From: an uncultured Bacilli bacterium
GTDB lineage: Bacteria > Bacillota_I > Bacilli_A > RF39 > UBA660
Assembly (NCBI GenBank): GCA_947628725.1
Contig: CANRAQ010000002.1
Coordinates: forward strand, 1 to 47,938
Direction of reading: 5' to 3'
DNA length: 47,938 nucleotides
A program made the translations under genes and the position numbers. The notes beneath the pieces are model-generated. The model saw only the letters and a list, made by a program, of their open reading frames with translations. It was not told where the DNA came from and ran no database searches. Shown here piece after piece: positions 7,581-45,443 of the stretch. Positions within the stretch are counted from its first letter, which is position 1. Each line of letters opens with the position of its first letter.

Positions 7581-7922
7581 CTATTCTTCAATGCAAGCAT
7601 TTAACAAAGTAATTATGCTTATTAAATCATTGTCACTTAATTTTTCAACAAATTTTAAATTTCTAATTTCATAATCTATACTTCTAATATGTTCACACAA
7701 AACGGATCCATGTACATCTTTGGTATCCTCCAATTTATAATGTGTTGGAAATTCTTTATCATTAGAAGTAATTGGACACACAATAACCATTTTTGTATTT
7801 TGATTAAAGATGTTATTGCTAATTACAACTGCAGGTCTAAAGCCTGATTGTTCATGACCTTTTATTGGATTAAAATTTAGAAAAACTAAATCTCCTTGCT
7901 TTGGTATATATTTTTTTACCAT
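7581..7922 (-). CDS. mazF: Type II toxin, PemK/MazF family endoribonuclease
   Basis: 113 aa. The IPKQGDLVFLNFNP..GHEQSGFRPAVVIS pattern is typical of MazF/PemK. Overlaps the upstream antitoxin gene. Confidence 0.85.
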   Translation of the reverse strand: MVKKYIPKQGDLVFLNFNPIKGHEQSGFRPAVVISNNIFNQNTKMVIVCPITSNDKEFPTHYKLEDTKDVHGSVLCEHIRSIDYEIRNLKFVEKLSDNDLISIITLLNACIEE

Positions 7923-8158
7923 ATTTCTTTTCCTACACTTTCATCCCAAGAAAAATCCTTTGCTAAATTTTCACCATTATATTCTTTAAATCTTTTTTCT
8001 AATGATATTTTCTTTTTTTGAGGCACACTAATAACTATTTTGTTATCATCTAGTTCTATATTTAATATATCATTAGTTTTTATATTTAAAGATTTTAAAA
8101 TATTACTAGGAATTCTAATACCTAAAGAATTTCCCCACTTTTGAAGCCTAGCTTCCAT
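7916..8158 (-). CDS. mazE: Type II antitoxin, MazE/AbrB/SpoVT family
   Basis: The N-terminus MEARLQKWGNSLGIRIP is a classic MazE/AbrB swapped-hairpin motif. The start at 8158 follows GGGGATGA. The stop overlaps mazF by 7 nt. Confidence 0.8.
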   Translation of the reverse strand: MEARLQKWGNSLGIRIPSNILKSLNIKTNDILNIELDDNKIVISVPQKKKISLEKRFKEYNGENLAKDFSWDESVGKEIW

Positions 8159-8233
8159 GTTATCATCCCCATTCACTTATAGTATATACAATGTTTATAC
8201 ATTTGTCAACCATTTATTACAATTTATAATAAG

Positions 8234-9802
8234 TTATTTAGGCATACTAAAAGTAACTTTAATATTTATAGTTTTATCTTCAAATATCTCTATTTTATCG
8301 ATTAAATTAACTATTAGTTCTCTACTAGGGTTTTTAAAATATATAAATTTATTAATATATTCTCTTATAAGTTTATTTTTTAACTCTTCATTTATTGTTT
8401 CATTAATATCATCATTTAATTTATTATATTCTTTTTGTTTTATTGAAAGTTCATGTTCTAATTTTGATTTTACTCTTTCAAATTGTTCATCAGTAATTTT
8501 TTTATTTAACTTATCAATATAAATATAATCTAAATTATCATTAATTTGTTTAATATCATTATTTAGTATTTCTAGTCCTTTTTTGTTATTAACTTTATTA
8601 TTTTTATTTAAATTAGATAAAACATTATTTCTAATTTTATCTTGACTAATATAATTTAAACACATTTTAGTAAGTGAATTAATAATTATTTTTTCCAACT
8701 TATCATAATTATTTGAATGAGTTGTACAAAGTCTTTTCTTCATATAAGTTCTATAGTAATTGCAAATAGTGTAACATCTATCATCCTTTTTTCTTCTAGA
8801 TGTAATTGATATTCTATGTCCACATTCACCACAATATAAAAGTCCATCTAATAAATGATTTTCTTTTTTTTCATTTCTACCTACATTTTTAGGTATTCGT
8901 TTTTGAGTTTCATAAAATAATTCTTTGTCAATTATAGCTTCATGAGTATTTTCTACAACAATATAATCATTAGTATTATTTTTAACAATCTTTTTAACTT
9001 TATAATTGACTTTATTTCTTTTATTTTGCACTAGATCACCTATATATATTCTGTTAGTTAAAATATCTCTAATTGTTTTAGGATGCCACTTCCCATATTT
9101 TAAATTATAATGACTTTTCCATTCAAAACTATAATACTCGGCAGGAGTTTTTACTTTTTCATTCGTTAACTGTTTTGCTATTTTATAAAATGACAAACCA
9201 CTCATACACATATTAAATATTCTCTTAACAACACTTGCCTGTTCTTGATTTATTACTAAGTGATTTTTGTCATTTTTATCTTGATCATATCCAAATGGTG
9301 TTCTTCCACCTACCCATTTACCTTCTTTCATTTTTGCTTTTAAACTAGACTTTATTTTCTTAGAAATGTCTTTAGCATACATATCGTTCATTATAGCTTT
9401 AAATGGTGCAATATCATTATTAGAACTATCTAAAAATGTATCTATATTATCCGTTACCGCAATATATCTAACATTATGTTCTGGAAAATATTTTTCTATT
9501 AAATTGCCTGTACCAATATAATCCCTACCAAGTCTTGACATATCTTTAGTAATAACCATATTTATTTTTCCAAGTTCAATATCTTTAAGTAGTCTATTAA
9601 AATTTGGTCTATCAAAATTAGTTCCTGAATACCCGTCATCAATATAAATATCACATATATTTAAATTATTCTCTTTGGCATATTGAAGTAATAAACTTTT
9701 TTGATTTGTAATGCTCTCACTTATCAATACCTTATCGTCGTCTTCACGAGATAGTCTTATATAAAGACCAACATTATATATATTATTTAAACTACTAATC
9801 AA
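8234..9802 (-). CDS. Large serine recombinase (resolvase/invertase N-domain + recombinase domain + zinc ribbon + coiled coil)
   Basis: VGLYIRLSREDD catalytic Ser motif, MSRLGRD, a CGECGH...C..C zinc ribbon and a Lys/Asn-rich coiled-coil C-terminus. Architecture as in SpoIVCA/SprA/TndX. Confidence 0.9.
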   Translation of the reverse strand: MISSLNNIYNVGLYIRLSREDDDKVLISESITNQKSLLLQYAKENNLNICDIYIDDGYSGTNFDRPNFNRLLKDIELGKINMVITKDMSRLGRDYIGTGNLIEKYFPEHNVRYIAVTDNIDTFLDSSNNDIAPFKAIMNDMYAKDISKKIKSSLKAKMKEGKWVGGRTPFGYDQDKNDKNHLVINQEQASVVKRIFNMCMSGLSFYKIAKQLTNEKVKTPAEYYSFEWKSHYNLKYGKWHPKTIRDILTNRIYIGDLVQNKRNKVNYKVKKIVKNNTNDYIVVENTHEAIIDKELFYETQKRIPKNVGRNEKKENHLLDGLLYCGECGHRISITSRRKKDDRCYTICNYYRTYMKKRLCTTHSNNYDKLEKIIINSLTKMCLNYISQDKIRNNVLSNLNKNNKVNNKKGLEILNNDIKQINDNLDYIYIDKLNKKITDEQFERVKSKLEHELSIKQKEYNKLNDDINETINEELKNKLIREYINKFIYFKNPSRELIVNLIDKIEIFEDKTINIKVTFSMPK

Positions 9803-9969
9803 TGTTTACCTCCCTCTAAATATAAATATGTAGATGATGGTATCCCATATTTTTTATTTTTACAAATCATTAAAATATAGTTTTTTAATTCTTTATTTAA
9901 AACTTTTATAAAAATATCATTAATATCTTTTTCTTCACTGAAAATATAATTAATTTTATACTTATCCAT
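9799..9969 (-). CDS. Small hypothetical protein translationally coupled to the recombinase (candidate accessory/directionality factor)
   Basis: The stop overlaps the recombinase start (ATGA-type overlap). The ATG at 9969 is preceded by GAGGGG. No recognisable domain. Confidence 0.4.
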   Translation of the reverse strand: MDKYKINYIFSEEKDINDIFIKVLNKELKNYILMICKNKKYGIPSSTYLYLEGGKH

Positions 9970-10057
9970 AAATTTTAAACCCCTCACTTAAATTTATGGA
10001 AAAAGTATTATTTTTTTACATATTAAATTAATATATTCTATTATAATAATTTAAGCA

Positions 10058-10090
10058 AATAAAAACATCCTATAAAATTTATTAGGATGT
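10058..10090 (-). terminator. Intrinsic terminator immediately after the Fic gene
   Basis: 8-bp stem acatccta/taggatgt followed on the minus strand by a T-run. It separates Fic from the recombinase unit. Confidence 0.6.
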
Positions 10091-10843
10091 TTAGTTATCT
10101 TCATTTATTTCAAAATTTAATAATTCACGACAAGTTTTTTCATATAAATCTTGTTCATATTTTATAGTATCAATTAAAAACATTTTATCTTTTTCATATT
10201 CTTTTAAACCTCTCATATAATAAGGTTTATCAGTATCTAATACAATAAATGGCATAATGTTATTTTTTAAACATTCTTTAAACATTATTATTCTACCTAC
10301 ACGCCCATTTCCATCTCCAAAAGGATGAATTCTTTCAAATCTAAAATGAAAATCAACTATATCTTCTAGAGTAATACTACTTTTAGAATTATATTCTTTT
10401 AATAATTTTTCTATTTCTTTTTCAACATCATTTGGTGCTGTTGTATTAACAGCATTAACAACACCTATAATATTAGGAACAACTTTAAATCCACCAACAT
10501 TATATCTAGGATTTTCTTCATCACTAGTATTTCTTTTTAATATCTTATTCATTTCAATTATCATATCTTTAGTTAAGAGTTCATCTACATTATCTAGCAT
10601 ATAATCAAATAGTTTAAAATGATTTTTAGACTCAATTAAATCATCTAATTTAATTAAATCATCACTTTTTGTGACAAAAGAAGATGTATCAAATATTGCC
10701 TCAGTCTGTTCACTAGTTAATCTACTACCTTCGATTTTATTTGAATTATACGAAAAATTAACTTGTGAATAATGATATATATTACCTTTAAATTTAGATT
10801 GTTTTTGCTTAATTAATTCATTTTTTATTTTATTTATATTCAT
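10091..10843 (-). CDS. Fic/DOC family protein (AMPylase-type)
   Basis: HPFGDGNGRVGR Fic motif. The N-terminal SNKIEG matches the [ST]xxxE[GN] auto-inhibitory motif. Confidence 0.85.
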   Translation of the reverse strand: MNINKIKNELIKQKQSKFKGNIYHYSQVNFSYNSNKIEGSRLTSEQTEAIFDTSSFVTKSDDLIKLDDLIESKNHFKLFDYMLDNVDELLTKDMIIEMNKILKRNTSDEENPRYNVGGFKVVPNIIGVVNAVNTTAPNDVEKEIEKLLKEYNSKSSITLEDIVDFHFRFERIHPFGDGNGRVGRIIMFKECLKNNIMPFIVLDTDKPYYMRGLKEYEKDKMFLIDTIKYEQDLYEKTCRELLNFEINEDN

Positions 10844-10872
10844 AAATTCACCCTCTTCTAAGTCTTATTGTT

Positions 10873-11310
10873 CTATTTATTATATTCTTTTAAAAATTCT
10901 TCTAATTCTTTTTCATTTGAAAATATTTCTTCAAAAATATTATATAGTGTATCTGTTGCTTCATACTCTCCTATTGCATAACATTTTTTACCTAACCCAT
11001 ATGCAATTCCTGATTCAATATGTGCTGCCTTACCTGCAGGTAAAACAAGTAGTAAATTTTTTGAATTTTTTTCTCCTTCTAAATCATTATTAAATAATTT
11101 TAAAACAATATTATTTTTTAATCCTAGTGATTCAAACTCTTTTTGTTTTTCTTCGGGAGTTTGATTTTTGTTTCCATATCCCCAATCATCTTCATTTTTT
11201 AAAAAACAATAATAAGATATTTTGTATTTATCAAATAAATTACATATATTTAAAATATTTTCTTTATTCCTAGCTCTACCGGCTATAAAAAATTCATATT
11301 TATTATTCAT
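10873..11310 (-). CDS. Nucleoside 2-deoxyribosyltransferase-like fold protein
   Basis: 145 aa. FIAGRARNKE near the N-terminus and a HIESGIAYGLGKK Glu-containing motif resemble the NDT/TIR-like Rossmann family. Remote, by eye. Confidence 0.45.
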   Translation of the reverse strand: MNNKYEFFIAGRARNKENILNICNLFDKYKISYYCFLKNEDDWGYGNKNQTPEEKQKEFESLGLKNNIVLKLFNNDLEGEKNSKNLLLVLPAGKAAHIESGIAYGLGKKCYAIGEYEATDTLYNIFEEIFSNEKELEEFLKEYNK

Positions 11311-11370: not shown

Positions 11371-11502
11371 TCACACATGTGGTACTTCATGATAGAATTC
11401 TTTTTCTACACATTTTGTTATTACTGGTTCCATTATTGGTTGTTCCATTTGAGGTGCTTGTTGTCTATTGCATCCTCCACAACAATTTCTATTACAAAAC
11501 AT
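11371..11502 (-). pseudogene. N-terminal segment of the split CotD-family spore coat gene
   Basis: AGGAGG RBS, then MFCNRNCCGGCNRQQAPQMEQPIMEPVITKCVEKEFYHEVPHV*. The stop falls 2 codons after the shared CACAT core. Below the track size cutoff. Confidence 0.6.
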
Positions 11503-11615
11503 AAATACCTCCTATCTAATTTATAATATGAATAATAAATTAAATTGTATGGTTTTATGCACAAAAAAATTATGGTTTTATAATCATAATTTTTCTAATA
11601 TATAAATTGCCTATA

Positions 11616-11933
11616 TTACATACTTAGGTTGTTAAATTCTTCTTTAAGAGTTTGAAATTTAGAATCTATTTTATTTTCTTCTGCTTGTTCTAAAACATAC
11701 CATCCTTTTCTAAACATTAATTCATATACATCTCTTTGAAGTTTAGAATATATTTCAAATGTATTTTTATATTCATTATATAAGTTTTCATTACTAGCTT
11801 CTGTAAGAGCTATAGCATAATTTTTAACTAATTCTTTTAAAGTACTTAATAAAGAATTCATATAGTCTTTATCATTTAATGTTTTCCCAGTAGGTACTTC
11901 AACTTTTGGATTTTTTATTTGATTATTATTCAT
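11616..11933 (-). CDS. Spore coat protein, CotF domain family
   Basis: LNDKDYMNSLLSTLKELVKNYAIALTEASNENL...FRKGWY matches the Coat_F pattern. The ATG at 11933 follows GGAGGT. Confidence 0.7.
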   Translation of the reverse strand: MNNNQIKNPKVEVPTGKTLNDKDYMNSLLSTLKELVKNYAIALTEASNENLYNEYKNTFEIYSKLQRDVYELMFRKGWYVLEQAEENKIDSKFQTLKEEFNNLSM

Positions 11934-12153
11934 TGTTACCTCCATCATTTAAAATATCTAATATTTTTGACATAGTATCAAAAAATGTATTACAAGCACT
12001 TTTTAGCATATCCTTAATCTCACTATCACTTACTTCTTCTACACTATTATTAGTACATTTATATGCACCATAATTCCAGTTAAACATATCACTTAAATAA
12101 TCTAAATCTTTACCACTTATAATGTTTGGTACAACTTGATATTCTATATTCAT
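11926..12153 (-). CDS. Hypothetical small protein co-transcribed with the cotF-like gene
   Basis: 75-aa ORF that overlaps the cotF-like start. No motif recognised. Confidence 0.4.
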   Translation of the reverse strand: MNIEYQVVPNIISGKDLDYLSDMFNWNYGAYKCTNNSVEEVSDSEIKDMLKSACNTFFDTMSKILDILNDGGNNE

Positions 12154-12241: not shown

Positions 12242-12400
12242 TTCCGAGTTTAGAAAATTGCATAATTGATTTCTCAACGACTAAATATTATCAGTACTTA
12301 GTGCAATATTCCTACCTAGAAGTTTCTCTCTTCTTACAATTGCAATGTCTAGAGTCGGTAGAAATTACGTAACCGCATTTCCATATCAATATTAAGCAAG
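12211..12400 (-). ncRNA. Candidate structured small RNA or cis-regulatory leader (family not identified)
   Basis: ~360 nt of non-coding sequence bounded by terminators at ~12575-12595 and 12211-12241. G+C is locally higher than the flanks and some complementary segments exist (ctacc...ggtag). No known riboswitch or T-box core recognised. Confidence 0.25.
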
Positions 12401-24286: not shown

Positions 24287-24594
24287 TTATATCATATTTA
24301 TGTAAAGATTAATTAAACAAAATAAAAGAATTATATAGGTAATTCTTGATAACTTTAAATAATATTTAATTTTTAAATTATTAAATATATCTAAATATTT
24401 ATCGATTGAAATACTAGGAAAACCACACTTTAATACATCATTAGTTAAATTAGTTAATTTAAGAGTTGTGATCTTACTTATATTTTTTTTGCATATTCAT
24501 CAATAAATATATAAAACTTACTACTTTCAAATAAATACATCTTACTACTATCATCTTTTTTTAACTTTAAATATTTATCATGCAACTTACTCAT
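24287..24594 (-). pseudogene. Small MutS domain-I-like gene disrupted by a frameshift in an A8 tract
   Basis: MSKLHDKYLKLKKDDSSKMYLFESSKFYIFIDEYAKKI* stops at the T8 run (24483-24490, + strand). The +1 frame continues NISKITTLKLTNLTNDVLKCGFPSISIDKYLDIFNNL, resembling the MutS mismatch-binding domain pattern (LF..G.FYE.F..DA...LT....G.P....YL). Confidence 0.4.
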
Positions 24595-24611
24595 ATAACC
24601 ACCTTCTTATC

Positions 24612-24646
24612 AAAAAAAAGGTAATAGAAAATTAGAATCTACTACC
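24612..24646 (-). terminator. Intrinsic terminator downstream of the pilin-like/lectin gene
   Basis: Stem ggtaataga/tctactacc (8 of 9 bp) followed on the minus strand by T8. Confidence 0.55.
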
Positions 24647-24794
24647 TTTCATATGTTCTCATTTTCATCATTTTACTACTCACAAGAACCATACTATTTA
24701 TGTGTTTATTTAGCCTAATCGCTAAATAGGAATTAAACTTCTACTATAAACCGTACTGAATATAATCCTTAAACTATATTAACTGACAGAAGTT

Positions 24795-26375
24795 TTACTT
24801 ACTTATTGTAGTTGGAACAAGAACGACACGGAACGAATCGCGGTCGACACTAACACCACTGTAGTAGAAGGAGCAGAACACGCCCGCACGGGTGCCATCG
24901 GCATAGTACCCACCACGACTGAACCAAGGGCTACCAGAATAAACAAAGTTAGCGTTATCTCCATACCATTCTGCTGTCTCACCTAATGCATGTCCTTTGC
25001 ATTCTTTATCTTTATCTGTATTTGTATTTGTACATTTAGAGTAAGAATCTACCATATATTTATCATAATATTTTGCATTATCAGGAAGAGTAAACCATGT
25101 TGCATCAACCCCTGAACTTGATACTGTATTATTGTAGTTACCCATTACTCTTTCAGCTGCTCCTCCACTTATATCATATATTCCATATATTGTCCCTGTT
25201 GTACTTGCTTTTTGCCCTTTTTCTGTTTCATATGTATTTGTTGTACATGTTGTTTCAGATGAACCTGCATTTGCTGTATCTCCTGCTATTCCTGTAATAT
25301 AGTTACTACAATTATTTATATAAACTTCTTCTTGGTCTTTTCCATATTTTCCATATTTTGATTGAGATAAGTACGCTACTGCTCCCCATTCTCTATTTTT
25401 CATCAGATGACTATCTACACCTTTTATATAATTATCAAATTTTTTTGCCGTAGCAAATTGATTAACAATTTGTTGATATCTTAATGATATTACATTTGGT
25501 AGTATATATGGGTCTTGATTAGCATTATTACAATTAGTTTCACTTGCTGATGTATAACATGTACTAGTTTTATCTGCACTTGTTTCAAATTTTGCTACCC
25601 ATATTCCATCAAGTTCATCATCCCCAAATGTAAATGCGGGATGTATTGTATAACCTTCTGTTGCATTTGTTCCTGTTCCACTTATAAAGTTTACTGATAT
25701 TTCTTGTTCTTTTGTTCCCATTTTATATTCATATCTTGGTATCCATACAAACATTGCTCTTACATCTGTATCTAGGTTTAATGCTTGACCTTCTGACTTT
25801 GCCTTTCCTGCATCTGTTAATATTACTGCATTTGCCCAATTATATTGTGAATAGTCATACCATTCTTTAGATGTATCTGCTATAACCCATGCATTATCTT
25901 TATATAGTACTGGTGTCATTCCTGATAATTCTGGAGTATTTGCTCCACTATTATCTTTATATACTTCTTCTGTTTTTGTTCCATCTTTTATTTTTAGGTT
26001 GCCTTTTTCATCTGTTTCTAATACTACATCTTTATATGTTAAGTCTTCTACTTTCTTTACTATTCCCCTATCAAATGTTATAGTTCCATCTGTTGGTTTT
26101 TCCCCATCTACTTCTACTACTAATTCTTCTCCATCACAAAGTAGATTTCCATTACTTTGTACTTCACATGTTGTTGGATTAAAATCTTCACTTATATTTT
26201 TTCTTGCTATTGCTTGTTCTACTGCATCTAAATATAGTTCACCTTTTCTTAAACTACTTGATTCTTTTGCATTATTTATTATGTTTAATATTATTGGTAC
26301 TGCTATTAGGGCTATTATTGCAAGTATTACTATTACTGCTAATAACTCTATTAATGTAAAACCTCTATTTTTCAT
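24795..26375 (-). CDS. Type IV prepilin-like N-terminus fused to an FGE-sulfatase/C-type-lectin-fold domain
   Basis: MKNRGFTLIELLAVIVILAIIALIAVP (G|FTLIE methylation motif). The C-terminal half has GIYDISGGAAERV and RGG...FRVVLV, like FGE-sulfatase family 'DMSGNVWEW' and 'RGGSW...GFR'. Confidence 0.8.
   Translation of the reverse strand: MKNRGFTLIELLAVIVILAIIALIAVPIILNIINNAKESSSLRKGELYLDAVEQAIARKNISEDFNPTTCEVQSNGNLLCDGEELVVEVDGEKPTDGTITFDRGIVKKVEDLTYKDVVLETDEKGNLKIKDGTKTEEVYKDNSGANTPELSGMTPVLYKDNAWVIADTSKEWYDYSQYNWANAVILTDAGKAKSEGQALNLDTDVRAMFVWIPRYEYKMGTKEQEISVNFISGTGTNATEGYTIHPAFTFGDDELDGIWVAKFETSADKTSTCYTSASETNCNNANQDPYILPNVISLRYQQIVNQFATAKKFDNYIKGVDSHLMKNREWGAVAYLSQSKYGKYGKDQEEVYINNCSNYITGIAGDTANAGSSETTCTTNTYETEKGQKASTTGTIYGIYDISGGAAERVMGNYNNTVSSSGVDATWFTLPDNAKYYDKYMVDSYSKCTNTNTDKDKECKGHALGETAEWYGDNANFVYSGSPWFSRGGYYADGTRAGVFCSFYYSGVSVDRDSFRVVLVPTTISK
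24814..24935 (-). other. Putative DGR variable region (VR) at the 3' end of the pilin-like/lectin gene
   Basis: On the coding strand I count only about a dozen A in ~120 nt, and well over half is G+C, within an AT-rich gene. There is a run of NNC codons (tac gcc ggc acc ttc tgc tcc tac gac). It encodes GGYYADGTRAGVFCSFYYSGVSVDRDSFRVV. Confidence 0.55.
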
Positions 26376-26468
26376 TTCTTTACTCCTCCTATATTTTACA
26401 TTAATATTATAATATTAATACAAAATAAAAACAAGTATTTTTTATTAATTTTACTATAGATTACTTTT

Positions 26469-26885
26469 TTATGTAAATAATTTTTTTAATAAATAATATA
26501 TAACATTTACAACCATAAAATTGCCTGTTTGCTGGTATAATAAAGTTTCACAACATACTTTACTTGCTTTTAAATAATCTTCATCATCTAAGCACATTAA
26601 TCTCCATACTTCTTGTGCAATTATTTTTCTAATTCTCATACTCTCTCCTTCACCACAACTTTAGTATTATTAACTGTATTATTTGTTGTTAATGTTGGAG
26701 CATATCCTAATTCTGAAAACAATCTTGATGATTGATAATACTTACTATAATTGTCAGTACCACATACTCCACCATTTTTGTATTTATCTAAATCTACTTC
26801 ATATCTTATTTCATCTGTATTTTTCTTCTTAAAAAATATTTTATTACCGATTCTTTTTATTTCACTATTTGTTAAATAATATTTT
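26469..26885 (-). pseudogene. Remnant of a DNA (cytosine-5) methyltransferase: TRD and motif IX-X region only, frameshifted
   Basis: Frame 1 reads ...SRLFSELGYAPTLTTNNTVNNTKVVVKERV*. Frame 2 reads MRIRKIIAQEVWRLMCLDDEDYLKASKVCCETLLYQQTGNFMVVNVIYYLLKKLFT*, which matches 'R.LT.RE..RL.GF.D......S....Y.Q.GN...V.V'. No N-terminal catalytic motifs are present. Confidence 0.6.
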
Positions 26886-27005: not shown

Positions 27006-27082
27006 TGGTGTCCCCGATAGGACTCGAACCTACCACCTAAAGTTTAGGAAACTTTTGCTCTATCCTGATGAGCTACGGGGAC
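27006..27082 (-). tRNA. tRNA-Arg (anticodon CCU)
   Basis: The reverse complement GTCCCCGTAGCTCATCAGGATAGAGCAAAAGTTTCCTAAACTTTAGGTGGTAGGTTCGAGTCCTATCGGGGACACCA folds as a cloverleaf. It has a 7-bp acceptor stem, a TTCGAGT T-loop, anticodon loop TTCCTAA and an encoded CCA. Confidence 0.9.
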
Positions 27083-30933: not shown

Positions 30934-32988
30934 TTATTCATTTATTCCTTCCGGTTCGATAATTTCTGTATTATCTATATTGTAAATTACTAAATCTATA
31001 CTATTATCTCCAAAATCTGCATGCATTTCTCTTACATAATTATCTTTATCTAAACTAACAGTAAGTGTTATATTTTCATCGAATTTATTGCTTTCATTAA
31101 ATACATGACTGTATGCAAGATTTGCATCGGCTTTATATAATACTATAGTATATGTAGTTATATCTCCATCTACACTCACATCTTTTATATCAAAAACTCT
31201 ATTTAAGAAATATAACTCTACTGGTGTAAAAATAGTATGTTTAGTTACATTTTTTACCCAAGTATCTGTACCAGTAAATTTAGTCCAACTTTTATGATGA
31301 TATGATGGTCCAACATAATTATGATCTACATACATACCTGGTGTCCCTTTATAATAAGTTTCACTTTGTGATGTTTCAAATATAGCGGAATTTTGTTCTC
31401 TATTATATTTTACAACTTTTCCATTTAATTTATATGTAGCGCTATTAACATCTCTAGTTTTTGCATATGCTTCCTCTATTTTAGAAGCCATTTCTCTTTT
31501 TTCAGTTGCTGTTAATTCTTTAGATTGTTCACGTTCAGTTAATACTACATTTAAATCTTTAGGTCTTTCAACATTTGTTTCATTAAAATTACCCATATGT
31601 AGTCTTACATGAAGTTCTGATGATTTATTTGTTAAAACTTCTTCTGTCCAATCACTATGTACTAATACTATATAACCATCATGATTGATACAAACATCTA
31701 GTTTTATATCTGTTTTAAACATATTTAAAATATTATATTGTACTTCTGCAACTTTATTAGCGTAAGCATTATCTATAGTTACAACATAAGTACTAAAAGC
31801 ATATCTTCCTGATTCTGGTTTAATTTCTTTAACATCTTTTATTTCATCAAAGAAACTAAGAGTACCTATACCAAATATAGAATGTAGTGATGGTGCTTTA
31901 ACCCATTCTTTTGAATCATCACTTTTAATCCATCTATCTTGATTATAATAACTGCTAACAAATGATTCACCATTATATCTTCCAGCAGCGCCTTCTAAAT
32001 ATTCTTCTACTCCATCTCCAAGAAGCCAACTTCTATTTTGAAGTTTATTATATTTTCTCTTGTAATATGAATTATACATTCCTTTTAATTCAAATGTATA
32101 ATATATACTATCAGTATTTTGAGTTCTTTTTGCTGCATCTTGAAGTAATTTGATTAGTTCTTCATTTTTAACTTTATTATCGTCGACTGGTTGAGTTTCT
32201 TCACTTGATTGTTTTTCATTATTTGACTCAATATTTGGAGTTACTTCAGGATTGCTTAATTCTGGAGTATCTTCCTTTTTAGGTTCATCTATTTGTGGTT
32301 CATTTTCAGTTCCTTGATTTTCTTCTGGGTCACTTACTCCTGGAACACTTTCCTCTTCTTTAGGTTCATCCTTTTCTGGTTCTTGTTCAGTCTCTTGATT
32401 TTCCTCTGGTTCTTTTACTTCTGGAATGTCTTCCTCTTCTTTAGAATCATCAATTTCTGGTTCTTGTTCAGTTCCTGGGTTTACCTCTGGTTCTTTTACT
32501 TCTGGAATGTCTTCCTCTTCTTTAGAATCATCTGTTTCTGGTTCTTGTTCATTTCCTTGCTCTACTTTAGGTTCACTTACTTCTGGAACAGTTTCTTCTT
32601 TTTTAGGTTCATCAATTTCTGACTTATTTTCAGTTTCCTGATCTACTTCAGGTTCATTTACCTCTGGTTTAGTTACCTGTTCAACATTTTCTTTTTTAGA
32701 TTCTTCTTTAACATTACTTTTTGTAGTTGTATTTTTTGTATTTACTAATTCTTCTACATCTCCAATTTTAACTTGATATTCTGGTAATGCTTTAGAATCT
32801 GTACTTGTGTTAATTTCACTTGTTTTTTCTTCTTTAGTATCATCTAATTTTACTTTTTCTTCAACTTTATCTGATGCCTTATTATCAGTTTCAACATTTT
32901 TGTTAACAAAGACATTAGGTAAAATAATTGCGCTTGCTGCTACTAAAGATGAACATGTCAAAATTATAGCTATCAATGTTTTTTTCAT
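30934..32988 (-). CDS. Secreted/surface protein with an acidic 27-aa tandem repeat region and two similar C-terminal halves
   Basis: Signal peptide MKKTLIAIILTCSSLVAASA. Repeats are EEEDIPEVKEPEVNPGTEQEPEIDDSK. No catalytic motif recognised. Confidence 0.6.
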   Translation of the reverse strand: MKKTLIAIILTCSSLVAASAIILPNVFVNKNVETDNKASDKVEEKVKLDDTKEEKTSEINTSTDSKALPEYQVKIGDVEELVNTKNTTTKSNVKEESKKENVEQVTKPEVNEPEVDQETENKSEIDEPKKEETVPEVSEPKVEQGNEQEPETDDSKEEEDIPEVKEPEVNPGTEQEPEIDDSKEEEDIPEVKEPEENQETEQEPEKDEPKEEESVPGVSDPEENQGTENEPQIDEPKKEDTPELSNPEVTPNIESNNEKQSSEETQPVDDNKVKNEELIKLLQDAAKRTQNTDSIYYTFELKGMYNSYYKRKYNKLQNRSWLLGDGVEEYLEGAAGRYNGESFVSSYYNQDRWIKSDDSKEWVKAPSLHSIFGIGTLSFFDEIKDVKEIKPESGRYAFSTYVVTIDNAYANKVAEVQYNILNMFKTDIKLDVCINHDGYIVLVHSDWTEEVLTNKSSELHVRLHMGNFNETNVERPKDLNVVLTEREQSKELTATEKREMASKIEEAYAKTRDVNSATYKLNGKVVKYNREQNSAIFETSQSETYYKGTPGMYVDHNYVGPSYHHKSWTKFTGTDTWVKNVTKHTIFTPVELYFLNRVFDIKDVSVDGDITTYTIVLYKADANLAYSHVFNESNKFDENITLTVSLDKDNYVREMHADFGDNSIDLVIYNIDNTEIIEPEGINE
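32250..32650 (-). repeat. 81-bp (27-aa) intragenic tandem repeats, ~5 copies
   Basis: 'ctctggttcttttacttctggaatgtcttcctcttctttagaatcatc' recurs at 32404 and 32485, with more diverged copies flanking. Confidence 0.8.
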
Positions 32989-38334: not shown

Positions 38335-39390
38335 TTAAAATTTACTTAATAAATTAATTAATCTTGTATTTTTATAAATACTTTCTCTTCCTACTTTTTC
38401 AAATTCAAGCAATCCAGCATCTACTAAACTATTTAAATATGTAGTAGCTGTTTGTCTTGTTACATCACATCTATTTTCAATATAATTAATTCTAGTATAG
38501 ACTTCAAAGAATAAAGAATCCAATAATTCATCAGAATATATTTTAGGTAATTTTGTCATAAACTCTTCTTTATAAGATTCCATTTCATTTTGAATTCGTT
38601 TAATTAATTCAATTGTATTTCTAGATGTTTCTTCGATTCCCTTTAATATATATATAATCCAATCTTCATAGTTATTATTTTCTCTAAATTCGGTAAATAA
38701 TTTATAGTATTGATCTTTATTTTTATTAATATAATTACTTAAATAAAGAATTGGACTATCTAAAAGATTATTTAATACTAAATATAAAACATTTAATATT
38801 CTACCAGTTCTACCATTTCCATCGTAAAATGGATGAATAGATTCAAACTGATAATGAATTAAAGCCATTTTAATAAGTGGATCTATCTCATCATCATTTT
38901 CATTAATATAATCTTCAAGATTTTTAAGTAAATCTCTAATTTCTTTTTCATCTTGTGGTGGAGTATAAATTACTTCTCCAGTTTTACTATTAACTAATTT
39001 AGTACCAGGATTTTTTCTTATACCAGCTTTATTGTGTTCAATCATTCCTTGAAGTTCTACTAAAACATTAGTTGAAATAAATTCTTTTTCTTTTATAATT
39101 TCATATCCACGCCAAATAGCACTTCTATAATCAACAACTTCTTTAGCAGATTCATCTTTAAATTCACTTTCCGTTAATACTTTATAAATACTATCATGTG
39201 TAGTAACAATATTTTCTATCGCACTACTATCCTTTGCTTCATTAATAGTAATAGCATTAATTAAAATATGTTGATTTGGAATTGAATTAGCAAAACCTTT
39301 TAATTCAGCAAGTGATCTTGAAGCTTCATTTAATGCTTCAAGTATTCTTGGTGTTTTTAAATCGCAATCATTAAATGGTAATAACTTCAT
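38335..39390 (-). CDS. Fic family protein with Fic_N and C-terminal winged-helix domains
   Basis: HPFYDGNGRTGR. SSAIEN matches [ST]xxxE[GN]. The C-terminal TRQTATTYLNSLVDAGLL is HTH-like. Confidence 0.85.
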   Translation of the reverse strand: MKLLPFNDCDLKTPRILEALNEASRSLAELKGFANSIPNQHILINAITINEAKDSSAIENIVTTHDSIYKVLTESEFKDESAKEVVDYRSAIWRGYEIIKEKEFISTNVLVELQGMIEHNKAGIRKNPGTKLVNSKTGEVIYTPPQDEKEIRDLLKNLEDYINENDDEIDPLIKMALIHYQFESIHPFYDGNGRTGRILNVLYLVLNNLLDSPILYLSNYINKNKDQYYKLFTEFRENNNYEDWIIYILKGIEETSRNTIELIKRIQNEMESYKEEFMTKLPKIYSDELLDSLFFEVYTRINYIENRCDVTRQTATTYLNSLVDAGLLEFEKVGRESIYKNTRLINLLSKF

Positions 39391-39429
39391 AGTTATTCAT
39401 CTCCTTACATATAATATTACACTATTTTT

Positions 39430-39494
39430 TTAACATATACAAGAAATATGTTAAAATTTTTGCATTTTTTTAACATATTTTATAATTATGTTAA
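39430..39494. promoter_or_regulatory. Two palindromic operator-like sites (half-site TTAACATA) upstream of the Fic gene
   Basis: ttaacatat-N7-atatgttaa at 39430-39454 and ttaacata-N9-tatgttaa at 39470-39494, 40-100 nt upstream of the Fic start. Confidence 0.45.
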
Positions 39495-39614
39495 AAATTA
39501 CTTATAGAATCATTCACAAAATTACTACTAAAAAAGCTAATACAAAAGCTTAAGAAATAAGCCTATACTAGCATACCATTTTTATTAAATTATATCTAAA
39601 AAATATTATTTATT

Positions 39615-39801
39615 ATTAAACTCCTACTGGCTCAAATTGTTCAATCATTATTTCTAAACAATTCATTACTTCATCAAACTCTATCCCTTCTGCATAAGCA
39701 AAGTTATTTTGAAATAACATAGCCATTATTCATTTTCATAATAGATTCAATAATTTCTATATTACTTTCTTCTTTAAATTCTTTTATTGTCATTCTTTCC
39801 A
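39615..39801 (-). pseudogene. Small frameshifted ORF, possibly the N-terminal remnant of an AbiEi-like antitoxin
   Basis: GGAGG RBS, then MERMTIKEFKEESNIEIIESIMKMNNGYVISK*. The next frame continues NNFAYAEGIEFDEVMNCLEIMIEQFEPVGV*. The family assignment is weak. Confidence 0.25.
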
Positions 39802-39924
39802 TAATTTTTCCTCCTTGACAAATCTACTGATATTTTGACGTTTATCAGTAATTTTGTCAATAATATTATAAAAAGTTGTAGAAATATTTTCCCAGATCTT
39901 AGTAATTATACTTACTTTTGGAAA

Positions 39925-40033
39925 TTTATTTAAATACTTTTACCCTTATTTTAAATCTTTTAAAATTAATTATTTACTTTAATAACTAAATAAAAGTTTA
40001 AAATTTTGGTAGTTTAAAAGGTAGTTTAGATTT
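39925..40033 (+). repeat. Copy A of a ~110-bp direct repeat (3' end of the 84-aa ORF plus downstream sequence)
   Basis: ~85-90% identical by eye to 45444-45551 (tttatttaaatacttttacc...aaaattttggtagtt.aaaaggtagtt.agattt). Confidence 0.8.
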
Positions 40034-40252
40034 AATTCCTAATTTATTCATAATATCATTTGCAGTCATTGGAACATTATAATCCATTACATGTAATAAT
40101 TTCCTGATATTAATTATTTTTTCTGTAATAGGCATGTCAGTAACAATAACTGATTCTTCTAAAACTTCATCAATCATTTTTAACATAAACTCAATAAAAA
40201 GTTGTAGAATCTCCATTTTTGTTGCAATCAGCAATTGACTTGTAATATCCAT
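39998..40252 (-). CDS. Hypothetical 84-aa protein (possibly a C-terminal fragment of a larger HTH-containing protein)
   Basis: ORF only. Its last ~12 codons lie within repeat copy A. Confidence 0.35.
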   Translation of the reverse strand: MDITSQLLIATKMEILQLFIEFMLKMIDEVLEESVIVTDMPITEKIINIRKLLHVMDYNVPMTANDIMNKLGIKSKLPFKLPKF

Positions 40253-40287
40253 CTTGCTTAATTCTTACTTAATTTTTGCTTAAATTA

Positions 40288-40791
40288 TCATATTTGCTGA
40301 TTACCGTAAAGAATTTGCTTTATTTTATAATTAATATTTTTATATTCTGAACAAATATTATTATATGATATATATGCTTTGTTTTCAGTTCGCCATAAAT
40401 CTATTGTAAATGTCGATATATTATTTTTAATTAAATTCCCGTGTTCTAAATTATTAAAAATATTAACAGTATCAGTTTGCTCAATAAAATCAAAAATAAA
40501 TAAGTCATTATCTGTATTTATAATTTCTTTTAAAATATCTACATCATCTCTATTAAAAAATAATAAAGGCGATTCATATAAATTATCTTTAGTCTTATAA
40601 AAACAATTATATTTTATATTTAAATCCTTTATTTTTTTATATAAAGAACTTTCTACTTCTAGAGAATCTATAAAAATTGCAATATTATTATAATTAAATA
40701 ATTCTAAAATTTTATAAATCTTATTTGCATCTAATTTTTTAATATTTAAAGAAATATTTTTTTCCTTATTACAAGCATATTTTTTTAACAT
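40288..40791 (-). CDS. Hypothetical protein, no recognisable domain
   Basis: 167-aa ORF preceded by GGAGG. Confidence 0.45.
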   Translation of the reverse strand: MLKKYACNKEKNISLNIKKLDANKIYKILELFNYNNIAIFIDSLEVESSLYKKIKDLNIKYNCFYKTKDNLYESPLLFFNRDDVDILKEIINTDNDLFIFDFIEQTDTVNIFNNLEHGNLIKNNISTFTIDLWRTENKAYISYNNICSEYKNINYKIKQILYGNQQI

Positions 40792-41086
40792 TATTCTTTA
40801 CCTCCATTTATATTTTTAATAATGAGTGCAGATATCTACGTGTGCATACCCATTTTTTCTTGTCACTCCTGTCAATTATTAATCAACAATATCACTGACC
40901 TTAATATTATACCAAATAAAGCTCATTTTTTATTAATATATCATTAATAAAAATATAATATCTTTTGGTTTTAAAATACCATAGTTAAAATGTCCTTCGC
41001 CTATTTAGTTGCTCTAATTTCTATTCTCTTTGTCTTATTTTTTATTGCATTAAAAGCTCTATTATCAATATCAAAAATATACTTCA

Positions 41087-41509
41087 TTAAATTAACTGTC
41101 TTTTTTTTGCGTTATTCAACTTCATGGTTAACTCTGGATATCTATTATCGTATGCAAAACTTTGTGGAGGTGTAAAATGATAAATTTGTCTCAATTCAAA
41201 AAGAGAAATTTGATTTTCCAAAATATAGACATGCCTTATTTCATATGCGTACTTTGACTTCTTTAGCCCCTTATTAAACTCCTCATTTCCATAACCATCT
41301 TTAGTTATTAGATTAGGATACTTAATAATTTCTCCTAATTCAATTATATATTTTAAAGTACATGTAGGTGTTGTCTCATATACATACAATATATCTATTT
41401 TTTGATTAGGATAATATTTTCTAAATTCATAATTTTTCTCACCAGTTTCAATTTTTTTTGTAAACTCTGGTTTTATACTTATGTATATTCCTTTTTTAAT
41501 ACTCTTCAA
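41087..41509 (-). CDS. ASCH (PUA-like) domain protein
   Basis: ISIKPEFTKKIETGEKNYEFRK matches the ASCH N-terminal pattern (I.P.y...I..G.K..E.R). Confidence 0.6.
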   Translation of the reverse strand: MKSIKKGIYISIKPEFTKKIETGEKNYEFRKYYPNQKIDILYVYETTPTCTLKYIIELGEIIKYPNLITKDGYGNEEFNKGLKKSKYAYEIRHVYILENQISLFELRQIYHFTPPQSFAYDNRYPELTMKLNNAKKRQLI

Positions 41510-41798
41510 ACTCCTTTTTAAAATAATAAATTGGTTTTTCTATCCAATTATCAATTATATTATGTATAGTATTTAATTATTCTATTATCTTTTCATTTTT
41601 TTAAAACTCTAATATTTCTATATAATCGTGAAAATTATTATTAATTTTTCCTTAATTTTTTTAATTCTTTTTTTACCCAATACTCACCTTTCTCATTATT
41701 TTCATTCGATTTTAATTTTTTTAATTAAAATTAATTAAAAAACAATTTTATTTATTTTGAATTTCAATACCTAAATGCTATCTAAAATATATTTTGAT

Positions 41799-42641
41799 TT
41801 ATACAACCACTGGTATTATTATGTCAATAAATTCTTCTAAACATTTTATAGTTTCATTAAATTCTAAATTTCTAGCATAACTATTCTTTCTAGAATAGCT
41901 TGTCCATTTATCTCTTAATACCTTACTATCCTTAATTACATTTAAATTTGCAATCAGATCTGCGTTAAATTCTCTTTTTTCAAAAGTTTTCTCCACTGCT
42001 CCTCTAAATTTAGTTTTATTAATTTTATTGAATTTAAACTTATGAATTAAATAAATATCATAATAGTCTTTCATTCTACTGCTTGCTTCTAACTTGCTAA
42101 GTATTGTTTCCATTTTTTCAGCTAGTACTGTTTCCAAATTATACGACCAAATCTTATATACTTCATTTCCTATTAACGATTCATATTTATAATCATCCGG
42201 ACCAGGATGTATTGGATCACCTGTAGCTATATCAATATGAAAACTATCTCTCATATTTTCTAACATAAAATTTATCGTAATTCTTAATCCACCATACTCA
42301 TCTTCATCACGAATTAGTTCAGTTTTTTCAATTACAAATTTTACATTATCTTCTACATCTATATTGATAATTTCTGTTATCATTTTAACAATATTTTCTT
42401 TGGTAAATTTTGTTTTCGTTATTGCAGTATCAATATCCATAGTACTTCTATTATCTAATCCAAATAATTTACTCAAATAGAAACCACCTTTTAATATAAA
42501 ATTATCTTTATATTTGCTTTTTGATAAACGCTCAACAAATCTATCATACATATAAAATCTCATTACAGAGTTAAAATTCACATTTTTTTCTCTAGAAATA
42601 TTTTTAAGTTTATCTTTTACTACTTGAGCAGAATTACTCAT
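41799..42641 (-). CDS. abiEii: Nucleotidyltransferase AbiEii/AbiGii toxin family (DUF1814)
   Basis: FILKGGFYLSKLFGLDNRSTMDIDT nucleotidyltransferase motif. Overlaps the upstream AbiEi-like gene. Confidence 0.8.
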   Translation of the reverse strand: MSNSAQVVKDKLKNISREKNVNFNSVMRFYMYDRFVERLSKSKYKDNFILKGGFYLSKLFGLDNRSTMDIDTAITKTKFTKENIVKMITEIINIDVEDNVKFVIEKTELIRDEDEYGGLRITINFMLENMRDSFHIDIATGDPIHPGPDDYKYESLIGNEVYKIWSYNLETVLAEKMETILSKLEASSRMKDYYDIYLIHKFKFNKINKTKFRGAVEKTFEKREFNADLIANLNVIKDSKVLRDKWTSYSRKNSYARNLEFNETIKCLEEFIDIIIPVVV

Positions 42642-43563
42642 AATATATGCCTACCATTTCCATTACTTTTTTACTTATTCCCATTCTTTTTGCATAATCA
42701 GATAGTTTTGCCACATTTTTATCTTTACTTTGAATATATTGTTTAACAGATTTTTTTACTTGTTCAGGATCCATTCTACCTTTTGATCTTATGATATCAC
42801 AAATGCATCTTTCCTTGTCATAAGCTCTAACTTTATTTCCACTTGGTGTTTCAACTTCAGTAATACCTATTTCATATATATCATCTGATACATAAAAAAC
42901 ATTACATTTTTCATTTACAGTATTAACATGATAGTTTTGTGGAACAGTTACTGTATAATTATATGGAAATTCCTCAGTCATACTATAAAAATATAGAGCA
43001 TTCATATGTGAAAAAATAGCTTTTTTATATTTTTGTTGGAATGAAAAATAACTATCCTCAAAAGCACTTGGGGAAAGATAAATACCTCTTGAAATTTTTT
43101 CAATATCGTTATTGTTTTCCATAATTGATATATATTGTCTGCTTATATTTAGTGGTTCTATCATTCTTGTGGAAAACATTCCATTATTGGTATCCATTAT
43201 TTGTTTTATAGTATCAGTAAATATTTTTAATTGTTCATTTGGATATTTCATTGATAGTTCCTTTATTAAATTAGACATAGTATTAATGTTCTTTAGTTGA
43301 TCTTGCATTGGTTTAAGCGTTTCATTAAGTTGTTCTCCTATTTTTCTAATTGGTTCTAGAGACTTAGAAATAGATTTACTAACTTCAACAATCGGCTTCA
43401 TAGATTCATTAATTGATTTACTTAGTTCTTGCATTGGACTTGATAGTTGAATAAGTTGTTCCTTAATTTGACTCATAGGTTCCTTTATTGAATTAATAGC
43501 TTCTACATAATTTTTAAGAACATTACTATCAATTTTATAATTGATTTGCTCCTCTTTTTTCAT
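42634..43563 (-). CDS. abiEi: AbiEi-like antitoxin/regulator with an atypical repeat-containing N-terminal extension
   Basis: The central FSTRMIEPLNISRQYISIMENNNDIEKISRGIYL is an AbiEi_4-type wHTH. It is paired with AbiEii. The first ~125 aa are additional. Confidence 0.65.
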   Translation of the reverse strand: MKKEEQINYKIDSNVLKNYVEAINSIKEPMSQIKEQLIQLSSPMQELSKSINESMKPIVEVSKSISKSLEPIRKIGEQLNETLKPMQDQLKNINTMSNLIKELSMKYPNEQLKIFTDTIKQIMDTNNGMFSTRMIEPLNISRQYISIMENNNDIEKISRGIYLSPSAFEDSYFSFQQKYKKAIFSHMNALYFYSMTEEFPYNYTVTVPQNYHVNTVNEKCNVFYVSDDIYEIGITEVETPSGNKVRAYDKERCICDIIRSKGRMDPEQVKKSVKQYIQSKDKNVAKLSDYAKRMGISKKVMEMVGIYYE

Positions 43564-43760
43564 ATTAATCCCTTTTCTTTCTTTGACAATTACACTGAAA
43601 TTGTATCATTTTTCAGTGTAATTGTCAAATAATTAACTGATTCTATTATAATTATCATCTTATATAAAGGCCATATATTTTTCTCAAAATTGCTACCTAA
43701 ATTTTAACTCAAAGTTTTTAATTAATCTTTATAAATCCTTATAAAATTTACTAATATACA

Positions 43761-45409: not shown

Positions 45410-45443
45410 TTCAGGGGGCGGTTAGTATTCACGCACTTCTAAG

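Follow-up and report, generated by a model that had tools for sequence, protein, structure and literature searches.

Introduction

In the diversity-generating retroelement (DGR) of Bordetella phage BPP-1, whose target is Mtd, sequence passes from a template repeat (TR) to a variable region (VR) in an adenine-specific manner, and the VR lies at the C terminus of a C-type-lectin (CLec) fold. Its TR is adjoined by a spacer RNA, 'Sp', which corresponds to Rfam RT-10; by binding to this RNA, Avd is recruited, and cDNA synthesis can proceed processively (PMC6182149; PMC5737381). Weinberg et al. suggest that other RT motifs are parts of DGRs as well (PMC5737381). Wu et al. 2018 (PMC5758913) list as 'Architecture D' the MSL-type DGRs, named here for a MutS-like accessory gene (MSL); an MSL is also present in the DGR of Legionella. 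In Bacteroides, an active DGR system diversifies type V pilus adhesins (bioRxiv 10.1101/2024.11.15.621889). In the literature, which we covered incompletely, we found neither a collapse of VR and TR by recombination nor type IV-pilin DGR targets in Bacilli, the only mention being that of a rare VR-bearing domain, the 'G-type pilin' (PMC11661182); this absence is weak evidence of novelty.

Here we describe a locus in a 47,938-nt stretch of DNA from an uncultured Bacilli bacterium (the window); its target gene, VR, spacer RNA, hairpin and accessory-gene remnant lie on the minus strand. Its relatives resemble MSL-type DGRs, with a small MutS_I gene, avd and a DGR-type reverse transcriptase (RT) on one strand, a TR/VR pair and a CLec target; the window, in contrast, keeps 75 frameshifted MSL codons, has lost Avd, RT and TR, and has a target with a type IV prepilin N terminus. 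Adenine-specific transfer, a C-terminal CLec VR and a structured noncoding RNA directly 3' of the TR are shared with BPP-1, but the spacer here is RT-14, the gene order is target-VR-TR-spacer-MSL-avd-RT rather than target-avd-TR-RT, and DNA folds of five loci gave no consistent hairpin or cruciform just 3' of the VRs of the BPP-1 kind. TaqVP (5vf4), TvpA (2y3c) and Mtd (1yu0) are the best structural matches to the target's predicted model and likewise have their variable residues in the last ~35 of the CLec fold, although sequence identity is 10-16% and none has a pilin-type N-terminal helix. Type IV pilins and pseudopilins (N_methyl) resemble the target in sequence and predicted structure, by G|FTLIE and by a long, hydrophobic helix at the N terminus that leads into a beta-sheet head, whereas a lectin domain of ~370 residues is appended here. 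The locus and its family offer a Gram-positive parallel to the Bacteroides adhesins: in both, a DGR of a gut bacterium is aimed at a pilus-associated adhesive protein, but those adhesins belong to a type V pilus rather than having a type IV prepilin motif, come from another phylum and are diversified by an active system. We conclude, with a probability of about 85%, that the window holds a fossil DGR of MSL architecture, a collapsed cassette whose VR is now frozen.

Results

The initial annotation of the window had pointed to an A-poor, G+C-rich gene tail, and this feature is real. On the coding strand, positions 24814-24935 contain 12 A in 122 nt (9.8%) and 57% G+C, compared with 44.8% A and 31% G+C in the rest of the gene; the binomial probability of 12 or fewer A is 4e-17. 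A sliding profile over 24820-24939 gives a GC of 0.567 and a plus-strand AT skew of +0.54, against flanks with a GC of about 0.30. All 29 paralog ends examined carry the same signature. Alignment to the TRs of two intact relatives, L002 (TR at 11730-11877) and L113, defines a VR of 148 nt homologous to the TR (24809..24956) with a diversified core at 24839-24941. The VR/TR homology, from 24956 to 24809, extends slightly beyond the earlier coordinates. The string that had been called IMH-like divides in two: its 3' half, ttcgttccgtgtcg, does lie in an invariant segment where VR and TR are equal, but its 5' half, gtcgaccgcga, falls on diversified positions.

The differences between the window VR and these templates have the expected bias. 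Mismatches to the L002 TR occur at 27 of 45 adenines and at 8 of 103 other bases; where the two proxy TRs agree, the counts are 27/45 and 6/95 (p=1e-11). Because the mismatches to the relatives' TRs are adenine-specific, the tail is a true DGR variable region and a genuine DGR product, as had been proposed. Mismatches at bases other than adenine to the available TRs number 6-10 for the window VR and 2 for L002's own VR.

The closest intact arrangement is that of L002, with 82% amino acid identity, where the gene and its VR (11393-11541) are followed after 190 nt by the TR, RT-14 (11894-12035), a MutS_I ORF that represents MSL (Pfam MutS_I, E=8e-11), bAvd and RT. An RT is also present in L028 and in L113, the latter an intact form of a near-identical cassette in the population with a 342-aa RT. 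The RT clade occurs in gut and other metagenomes, and 31 of its cassettes keep the same geometry: a gap of 104-377 nt separates the direct repeats VR and TR, and the RT-14-like spacer sits -4..126 nt from where the TR ends. Only the window departs from this layout.

It had been stated that there is no retroelement nearby, and this proved wrong. An RT-14 RNA (Rfam RF02921; 24651..24792) begins 3 nt past the stop codon of the gene and matches the full-length model with 55.6 bits, above the gathering threshold of 48.1; it shares ~99% identity with what follows the TR in L002, nhmmer detects it with E=2e-28, and in this clade 12 of 13 of its base pairs covary across 32 cassettes. The RT-14 family is named for its location near reverse transcriptase genes. 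In the window the neighbouring RT is deleted, while in L002, L040, L047, L059 and L113 the RNA stands with its RT, just 3' of the TR. Reading the sequence further reveals a hairpin rich in A and T, GGTAGTAGA...TCTATTACC, with a T8 run after it (24612..24646); it is kept after RT-14 in L002 and L113. A scan for consensus promoters and terminators, which performed no better on the real sequence than on shuffled ones, did not call it. Beyond it lies a pseudogene remnant of MSL, codons 1-75 of 120 (24362..24594). Its frame is broken by 2 nt inserted at 24489-24490, so that tblastn places amino acids 1-38 at 24594..24481 and 36-75 at 24487..24368 in another frame. Cassette homology stops at about 24362, the deletion junction beyond which Avd and RT are missing, and the remnant runs into a housekeeping PP-loop gene.

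The initial claim that the 48 kb contain no RT, Avd or template repeat was confirmed: blastn at word size 7 returned only chance matches to a TR-like second copy, and neither Pfam on all ORFs of at least 100 aa (no RVT_1) nor tblastn (no match to the L028 or L002 RT) revealed an RT or Avd in the window. Of a functional DGR, the window retains the target with its C-terminal CLec-fold VR and lacks the RT and the TR/VR pair; of the accessory genes, Avd is absent and MSL survives only as the frameshifted 75-codon remnant. Because RT-14 and the truncated MSL directly follow the gene, the locus represents a once complete cassette in ruins rather than an orphan target, and the fossil belongs to the known MSL-type architecture. 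Most family paralogs are solitary genes that end in VR-type sequence and have no RT in their vicinity; at least 10 occur in one genome, mostly of this stand-alone kind. Rfam found RT-14 in none of 14 paralog loci, and among the collected paralogs lacking an RT the spacer is carried by the window-type locus only. Exact-pattern scans of metagenome and viral contigs for the TR-end/RT-14 junction gave zero matches.

The junction suggests how the cassette lost its template. Over a 30-nt segment (24809..24838), VR and TR of the intact relative do not differ, and a crossover must fall inside it: sequence 5' of the segment is VR-type and sequence 3' of it is TR-flank-type. Window 26452..24808 matches the L002 gene and VR, and 24956..24362 matches the L002 TR, RT-14 and the 5' part of MSL, leaving one copy of VR/TR type where L002 has two. 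The 220 nt after the window VR are ~99% identical to L002 post-TR sequence, unlike L002 post-VR. As a result the ORF ends in codons derived from the TR flank (...T-I-S-K-stop; 24795..24808), whereas the L002 gene ends PTT-stop; the PTTISK end is found also in P0001/L001/L112. The sequence thus shows a single VR-type copy fused to the TR flank and spacer. Since the VR is joined directly to the relative's post-TR flank, we infer from this end product that the template was probably lost by recombination of VR with TR within the shared 30 nt. The comparison loci all come from metagenomes assembled from short reads, and several of their contigs end within the repeat. Identity to L002 along the gene ranges from 62% to 99%.

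The VR also appears to have stopped changing. In L030, the same locus from another sample, the VR is identical and only the MSL remnant differs, lacking the frameshift and having the same truncation into the PP-loop gene. A second collapsed copy, L001/L112, lies at another chromosomal site and shares the junction at 92% nucleotide identity. Over VR positions 27-148 it differs from the window at 10 of 122 sites, 2 of them TR adenines; its 3' 120 nt diverge at the background rate and show no adenine bias, and VR dN/dS is 0.36 for this copy versus 1.06 for the window against L002. The alignment across strains that the initial annotation had proposed thus yields, on two comparisons (L030 and L112), no sign of ongoing diversification. 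The history is mosaic where the VR begins: in its initial 26 nt and a patch next to them, the two collapsed copies differ at 5 of 9 TR-adenine sites. This patch and the mosaic identity imply that the order of events has been blurred by gene conversion among paralogs.

The target gene itself is intact, a 526-aa ORF (24795..26375; peptides quoted earlier: MKNRGFTLIELLAV..., GIYDISGGAAERV, RGGYYADGTRAGVFCSFYYSGVSVDRDSFRVVLVPTTISK) encoding a prepilin-anchored, CLec-fold variable protein. Both ends of the protein behave as annotated. Residues 2-25 (26301..26372) contain G|FTLIE, at which type IV prepilins are cleaved and N-methylated, together with the first part of a hydrophobic N-terminal helix; they form a class III signal peptide (G|F-x-x-x-E plus hydrophobic helix); Pfam PF07963 N_methyl matches with E=8.5e-8 (31.9 bits, cut-off 21.2), and the AF2 model (mean pLDDT 91.1) has a 55-residue N-terminal helix, residues 8-62. 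The C-type-lectin/FGE-like domain spans, with approximate boundaries, residues 150-521 (24813..25928), and Foldseek against the PDB returned TaqVP 5vf4 (E=1.3e-9), then Mtd 1yu0-3, PvdO, EgtB and TvpA 2y3c. In the family alignment the last ~35 residues are hypervariable. The gene probably still makes a pilin-anchored lectin, now of fixed specificity. Prepilin peptidase and pilus assembly machinery are not encoded in the 48-kb window.

Discussion

The history that best accounts for these remains starts from a cassette with the order pilin-lectin gene with 3' VR, about 190 nt, TR, RT-14-class spacer, MSL, Avd and RT. In its active period, reverse transcription copied TR RNA with adenine errors and the cDNA overwrote the VR; the adenine-specific mismatches show that the A-poor, G+C-rich tail arose in this way. 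A crossover between the closely spaced direct repeats, in their identical 30-nt 3' segment, then probably eliminated the sequence 3' of the original VR along with the TR's variable part; a second deletion took away the 3' part of MSL, Avd and RT, and the 2-nt frameshift in the MSL remnant was the final event. Lacking both a template and an RT, and followed by TR-type sequence to which homing is not expected, the VR is frozen. We rejected two other routes. A discrete mobile unit does not fit copies that share only ~80-130 nt of upstream homology (promoter/RBS) and show no terminal repeats, and retro-duplication by mutagenic reverse transcription of a long transcript does not fit an RT-14 and MSL remnant free of adenine-specific changes relative to L002 and L030.

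The initial annotation left a choice between a remote target and a fossil VR. A complete DGR elsewhere in the genome, for instance of the L113 type, could be diversifying the VR in trans. Such targeting may be common, given how many paralogs stand alone; the intact near-identical L113 cassette exists in the population, and contigs L001 and L031 break in RT-14/MSL, suggesting more than one copy per genome. Even so, the VR is identical in L030, its 3' 120 nt differ from the second collapsed copy at the background rate without adenine bias, and it has 6-10 non-adenine mismatches to available TRs where L002's own VR has 2. The downstream context points the same way. In L002, nothing separates VR from TR at positions 119-148, so the feature that shields a TR from homing must sit further 3'; because over 200 nt of window sequence past this segment are of TR type, the window should resist homing as a TR does (an expectation drawn from Guo 2011, PMC3240598). 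We therefore regard a live remote target as improbable, and the fossil half of the annotation's choice is the one upheld by L030, L112 and the adjoining RT-14 and MSL remnants.

An origin of the VR-to-RT-14 junction in assembly is very improbable. A short-read assembler could have jumped through the exact 30-nt stretch common to VR and TR, and several related contigs do end in this region; yet no fewer than four independent assemblies (window, L030, L001 and L112) carry the junction, which they place at two chromosomal sites, a mis-join would have kept MSL-Avd-RT where the window and L030 have MSL truncated into the PP-loop gene, and L112 lacks MSL and runs into glmS. That the compositional island arose outside any DGR, by horizontal transfer or by selection on amino acids or codons, is almost certainly incorrect: beyond composition itself nothing speaks for it, and it is contradicted by the adenine-specific differences from relatives' TRs (p~1e-11), by the adjoining DGR spacer RNA and accessory-gene remnant, and by the shared signature of 29 of 29 paralog ends. 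Finally, because VR and RT-14 in one mRNA reproduce the TR-spacer RNA arrangement, the transcript of the collapsed gene could serve as a second template, from which RT-Avd supplied in trans by an L113-type cassette of the same genome would copy a selected, successful binding variant into paralogous pilin-lectin genes. We consider this role as donor quite unlikely; if it were true, further variation would be confined to the 12 remaining adenines, and VR x TR collapse would be a template update, not just decay.

Read as a fossil, the locus is a clean natural example of DGR death, in which one crossover would remove the template and spare the target gene. The geometry of the clade lends itself to this outcome: VR and TR are direct repeats 100-380 nt apart, and a crossover in their identical 3' segment loses the TR. 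The work also gives RT-14, an orphan Rfam family, a place: it is the structured spacer directly after the TR in a widespread DGR clade of the MSL-Avd-RT kind, which fits the suggestion of Weinberg et al. For annotation, an A-poor, G+C-rich CLec tail followed by an RT-14 match, with no RT, marks a collapsed cassette.

The pilin anchor, initially thought unusual, turns out to be the norm across the more than 7,800 homologs of the target protein. These type IV-prepilin-anchored lectins from uncultured gut Bacilli, a large family with hardly any annotation, are the usual target of the whole DGR clade. Exact-protein look-up returned no record for the target protein, nor for P0009 and P0006; in a scan of genome contigs the best match, 49% identical, came from uncultured rabbit-gut Bacilli MAGs. 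On the related contig L001, three small N_methyl genes lie ~8-9 kb upstream of its copy of the gene.

Results

An A-poor island beside the remnants of a DGR

The target gene (window 24795..26375, minus strand) encodes a 526-aa protein that contains all the peptides quoted in the initial annotation, and its 3' end is indeed a compositional island, as had been proposed there. On the coding strand, A accounts for 12 of the 122 nt at 24814-24935 (9.8%; G+C 57%), against 44.8% A and 31% G+C over the other 1,436 nt of the gene. The binomial probability of so low an A count is 4e-17, and a sliding profile places the island at 24820-24939 (GC 0.567, versus ~0.30 on both sides). The window contains no second, template repeat (TR)-like copy of the island, and neither its ORFs of at least 100 aa nor tblastn gave a match to a reverse transcriptase (RT) or to Avd, an accessory protein of diversity-generating retroelements (DGRs).

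The earlier statement that no retroelement lies nearby was nevertheless wrong, as an RT-14 RNA and the remnant of a MutS_I-domain gene adjoin the target gene. An Rfam scan gave a full-length match to RT-14 (RF02921; 55.6 bits, gathering score 48.1) at 24651..24792, on the target's strand (minus), beginning 3 nt past the stop codon. Next come an AT-rich hairpin with a T8 run and an ATG at 24594, the start of the MutS_I remnant: residues 1-38 and 36-75 of a 120-aa MutS_I protein were recovered in two separate frames, and homology ends at ~24362. The RT-1 to RT-19 motifs were defined by their closeness to RT genes; RT-10 lies between TR and RT in the BPP-1 DGR, and other RT motifs were speculated to serve other DGRs (Weinberg et al., 2017, PMC5737381). 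Small MutS-like (MSL) genes are a class of DGR accessory gene that co-occurs with avd, termed Architecture D (Wu et al., 2018, PMC5758913).

Intact cassettes in relatives

Databases list more than 7,800 relatives of the target protein, almost all of them with an N_methyl motif and otherwise blank in Pfam. When the closest 13 were aligned, the last ~35 residues varied freely within a fixed frame, RGG...AGVF...G...SFRVV. P0002, which is 82% identical to the target protein, is encoded on a metagenome contig (L002) that carries a textbook DGR: a variable region (VR; 11393-11541), a TR rich in Asn codons (11730-11877), RT-14 (11894-12035), and MutS_I, bAvd and RVT_1 ORFs, the last cut by the contig end. 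This VR differs from its own TR at 23/45 adenines and at 2/103 other bases. A second contig, L113, carries a cassette 98.5% identical to that of L002, with an uninterrupted RT of 342 aa. On L029 (725-1453), in the closest cassette that has a TR, the RT ORF departs from intact RTs after about residue 180 and terminates at 201. The first ORF of the interrupting element comes next, an IS605-type OrfB/TnpB N-terminus (Pfam HTH_OrfB_IS605, E=7.5e-16), and the L002 contig ends (13373) at the same point. The break in L029 is a strain-specific IS insertion into the RT. In a more distant lineage (L028; RT 67% identical), target, VR, TR, an RT-14-like spacer, bAvd and a 330-aa RT are present without MSL. 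We also observed that positions 1-60 of L113, where that contig begins, directly upstream of the TR, are target-gene-like (ECKGHALGETAGWYGE...), unlike L002; this may be a longer TR homology in that strain, a gene-TR fusion (the reciprocal collapse) or an assembly join.

Using the TRs of L002 and L113 as proxies for the lost template, we found the window VR to differ at 27/45 adenines and 8/103 other bases from the former (Fisher p 4e-11), and at 29/48 and 10/100 from the latter (p 2.5e-10). At sites where the two TRs agree, the figures are 27/45 and 6/95 (p 1e-11). These adenine-specific mismatches confirm the DGR origin that had been suggested for the tail. Most of the non-adenine differences (7 of 8 and 7 of 10, respectively) recur in a second collapsed copy of the gene, and therefore stem from divergence of the lost TR or from old point mutations.

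A probable collapse of VR onto TR

Two alignments to L002 account for the present structure. Window 26452..24808 matches the L002 gene and VR at 87% identity, and 24956..24362 matches its TR and RT-14 and the beginning of its MSL at 92%, so that the repeat occurs once in the window and twice in L002. Inside the repeat the window is VR-type (A-depleted); from repeat position 149 on, over more than 220 nt, it is ~99% identical to the TR flank and does not follow the VR flank. Between positions 119 and 148, a 30-nt segment corresponding to window 24838..24809, the L002 VR and TR do not differ, and the flank type switches there; the crossover must lie in that segment. A single VR x TR crossover within it would have removed the native 3' flank of the VR together with the variable part of the TR, a loss of 337 nt in L002 coordinates (the offset between VR and TR starts, 11393 to 11730). 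As a result of the collapse, the window ORF ends in PTTISK-stop rather than PTT-stop. Judged from its sequence, the collapse product itself is there to be read; the mechanism would be RecA-type recombination or replication slippage between direct repeats.

Identity to L002 across 26452-24362 is a mosaic that swings from 62% to 99%. The first third of the gene (5' side) and RT-14/MSL are 96-99% identical, the lectin body is 82-93% identical, and the stretch around the VR 62-76%. An NTNTDKDKE insertion in the window resembles another paralog, P0006. This pattern suggests patchy gene conversion among paralogs, because of which the order of events is only loosely resolvable.

A fossil VR

The locus recurs in another sample (L030), with an identical downstream PP-loop protein and about 9 differing positions in 1,850 nt, one in the gene body and the others clustered in the MSL remnant; they include a 2-nt indel that frameshifts the window's MSL copy. 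The VR is identical and MSL is truncated at the same point. The second collapsed copy (L001; complete on L112) occupies another chromosomal site; it shares with the window 91.7% identity over 26448..24607 as well as the VR-to-RT-14 junction, and has no MSL before a convergent glmS. That this junction is an assembly artefact is very improbable. Across VR positions 27-148, the window and the second copy differ at 10 of 122 sites, the background rate, and 2 of these differences fall at the 39 TR-adenine sites; dN/dS of the VR is 0.36 between these copies and 1.06 between the window and L002. At the start of the VR (its first 26 nt) and in a neighbouring patch, 5 of 9 adenine sites do differ between the two copies; the patch resembles P0006, and we read these differences as gene conversion among paralogs. 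We regard a DGR elsewhere in the same genome as distinctly improbable.

To our knowledge, a DGR never rewrites its own TR. The L002 VR equals its TR through position 148, and the signal that distinguishes the two must therefore lie further 3', where the window is TR-type. In BPP-1, sequence just downstream of the VR is needed for efficient homing (Guo, 2011, PMC3240598). The window VR should therefore resist homing as strongly as a TR does. It also shares with a TR its position beside RT-14, but that the collapsed gene now acts as a secondary template is very improbable. We conclude that the window locus is akin in its workings to a DGR of the MSL type whose target has a CLec fold, and is descended from one, although the RT, TR and Avd of a functional DGR are all missing from it. 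Between the two options originally offered, a remote target or a fossil VR, it is the fossil that stands.

The target protein

An AlphaFold2 model built on an 84-sequence alignment (mean pLDDT 91.1) comprises a helix (residues 8-62), a beta-sheet head and a large alpha/beta domain. Foldseek against the PDB ranked TaqVP first (E=1.3e-9) and then Mtd, with the FGE-type PvdO, EgtB and OvoA, and TvpA, after them. Pfam detects only the prepilin motif in the target, and a few relatives have weak FGE-sulfatase scores. Both the CLec/FGE fold and the pilin anchor of the initial annotation are thus supported, the former by DGR variable proteins at the top of the ranking with FGE-type folds next, the latter by the prepilin motif and the modelled N-terminal helix. 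The ORF is intact, and comparison of the gene body between copies gives a dN/dS of 0.56-0.72; the gene is therefore probably still expressed, under constraint that is relaxed or diversifying.

Cassettes across the clade

A scan with an RT alignment recovered 80 cassettes (L032-L111) from gut and other metagenomes. An MSL-Avd-RT core is common among them, and the usual neighbour is a homolog of the target protein, either upstream in the same orientation or downstream in the opposite one, with the spacer always on the target's strand. Two layouts result: target-VR-TR-spacer lies upstream, co-oriented with MSL-Avd-RT, or downstream and convergent. In the convergent layout, TR-spacer RNA and RT mRNA are therefore separate transcripts. 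The 31 loci in which VR/TR pairs were recovered have 16-57 TR adenines, 4-22 of them mismatched, and 55-137 other bases, of which 0-5 are mismatched; 104-377 nt separate the VR end from the TR start, and the spacer lies -4 to 126 nt from the TR end. Rfam finds RT-14 at gathering score in three further cassettes, and 32 aligned spacers have compensatory changes in 12 of 13 consensus pairs, with pairing kept in the window copy. In BPP-1, processive cDNA synthesis depends on a noncoding segment 3' of the TR to which Avd binds (Handa, 2018, PMC6182149); by position, RT-14 may be its analogue.

A spacer profile run over 31 paralog or relative loci matched only in the window, L030, L002 and L028; the many other, stand-alone paralogs form a class separate from the collapsed cassette in the window. 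At each of the 29 paralog 3' ends examined, the sequence has 10-26% A and 40-66% GC, against 34-44% A and 32-39% GC in the gene body. Two stand-alone paralogs, P0005 (L003/L004/L005, identical across three samples) and P0004 (L027), have VR-type ends beside housekeeping genes, upstream of rpsL and of an AP endonuclease, respectively; spacer, MSL, Avd and RT are absent from these loci. The nearest genome-level relatives (at most 49% identity) are uncultured Bacilli MAGs from rabbit gut, one with at least 10 paralogs; a gene of the bile-salt-hydrolase family in the window is likewise in keeping with a gut origin. What is new here is modest, namely VR x TR collapse as a route of decay, the placing of RT-14 as the TR-adjacent spacer of a clade, and the size of the pilin-anchored lectin target family; all three are within known DGR biology.

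Other features of the window

A stop-free frame of more than 2,191 codons (1-6573, minus strand) runs off the window start. It begins MSKRRGFTLVELLAV, a prepilin motif, and continues with a pilin-head region like the target's N-domain and then with 528-nt (176-aa) tandem repeats; the predicted product is a second, very large pilin-anchored surface protein of the same organism. Between tRNA-Arg(CCT) (27006-27082) and the target gene, a 56-aa ORF (26469-26639, minus strand) encodes only the C-terminal part of a C-5 cytosine DNA methylase (Pfam E=2.6e-6), a further gene remnant beside the decayed cassette. Several ORFs, such as 30934-32988 and 43930-45138, have no Pfam match. Clusters of defence, toxin and mobile-element genes at 7581-11310 and 38335-47228 include MazF/PemK, a serine recombinase, two Fic proteins, AbiEii/AbiEi and Abi_2. 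A PGK RNA motif (Rfam RF03040; 67.3 bits versus 50.8) lies at 12281-12369 (minus strand), upstream of an Alg14-like/SRP54 region.
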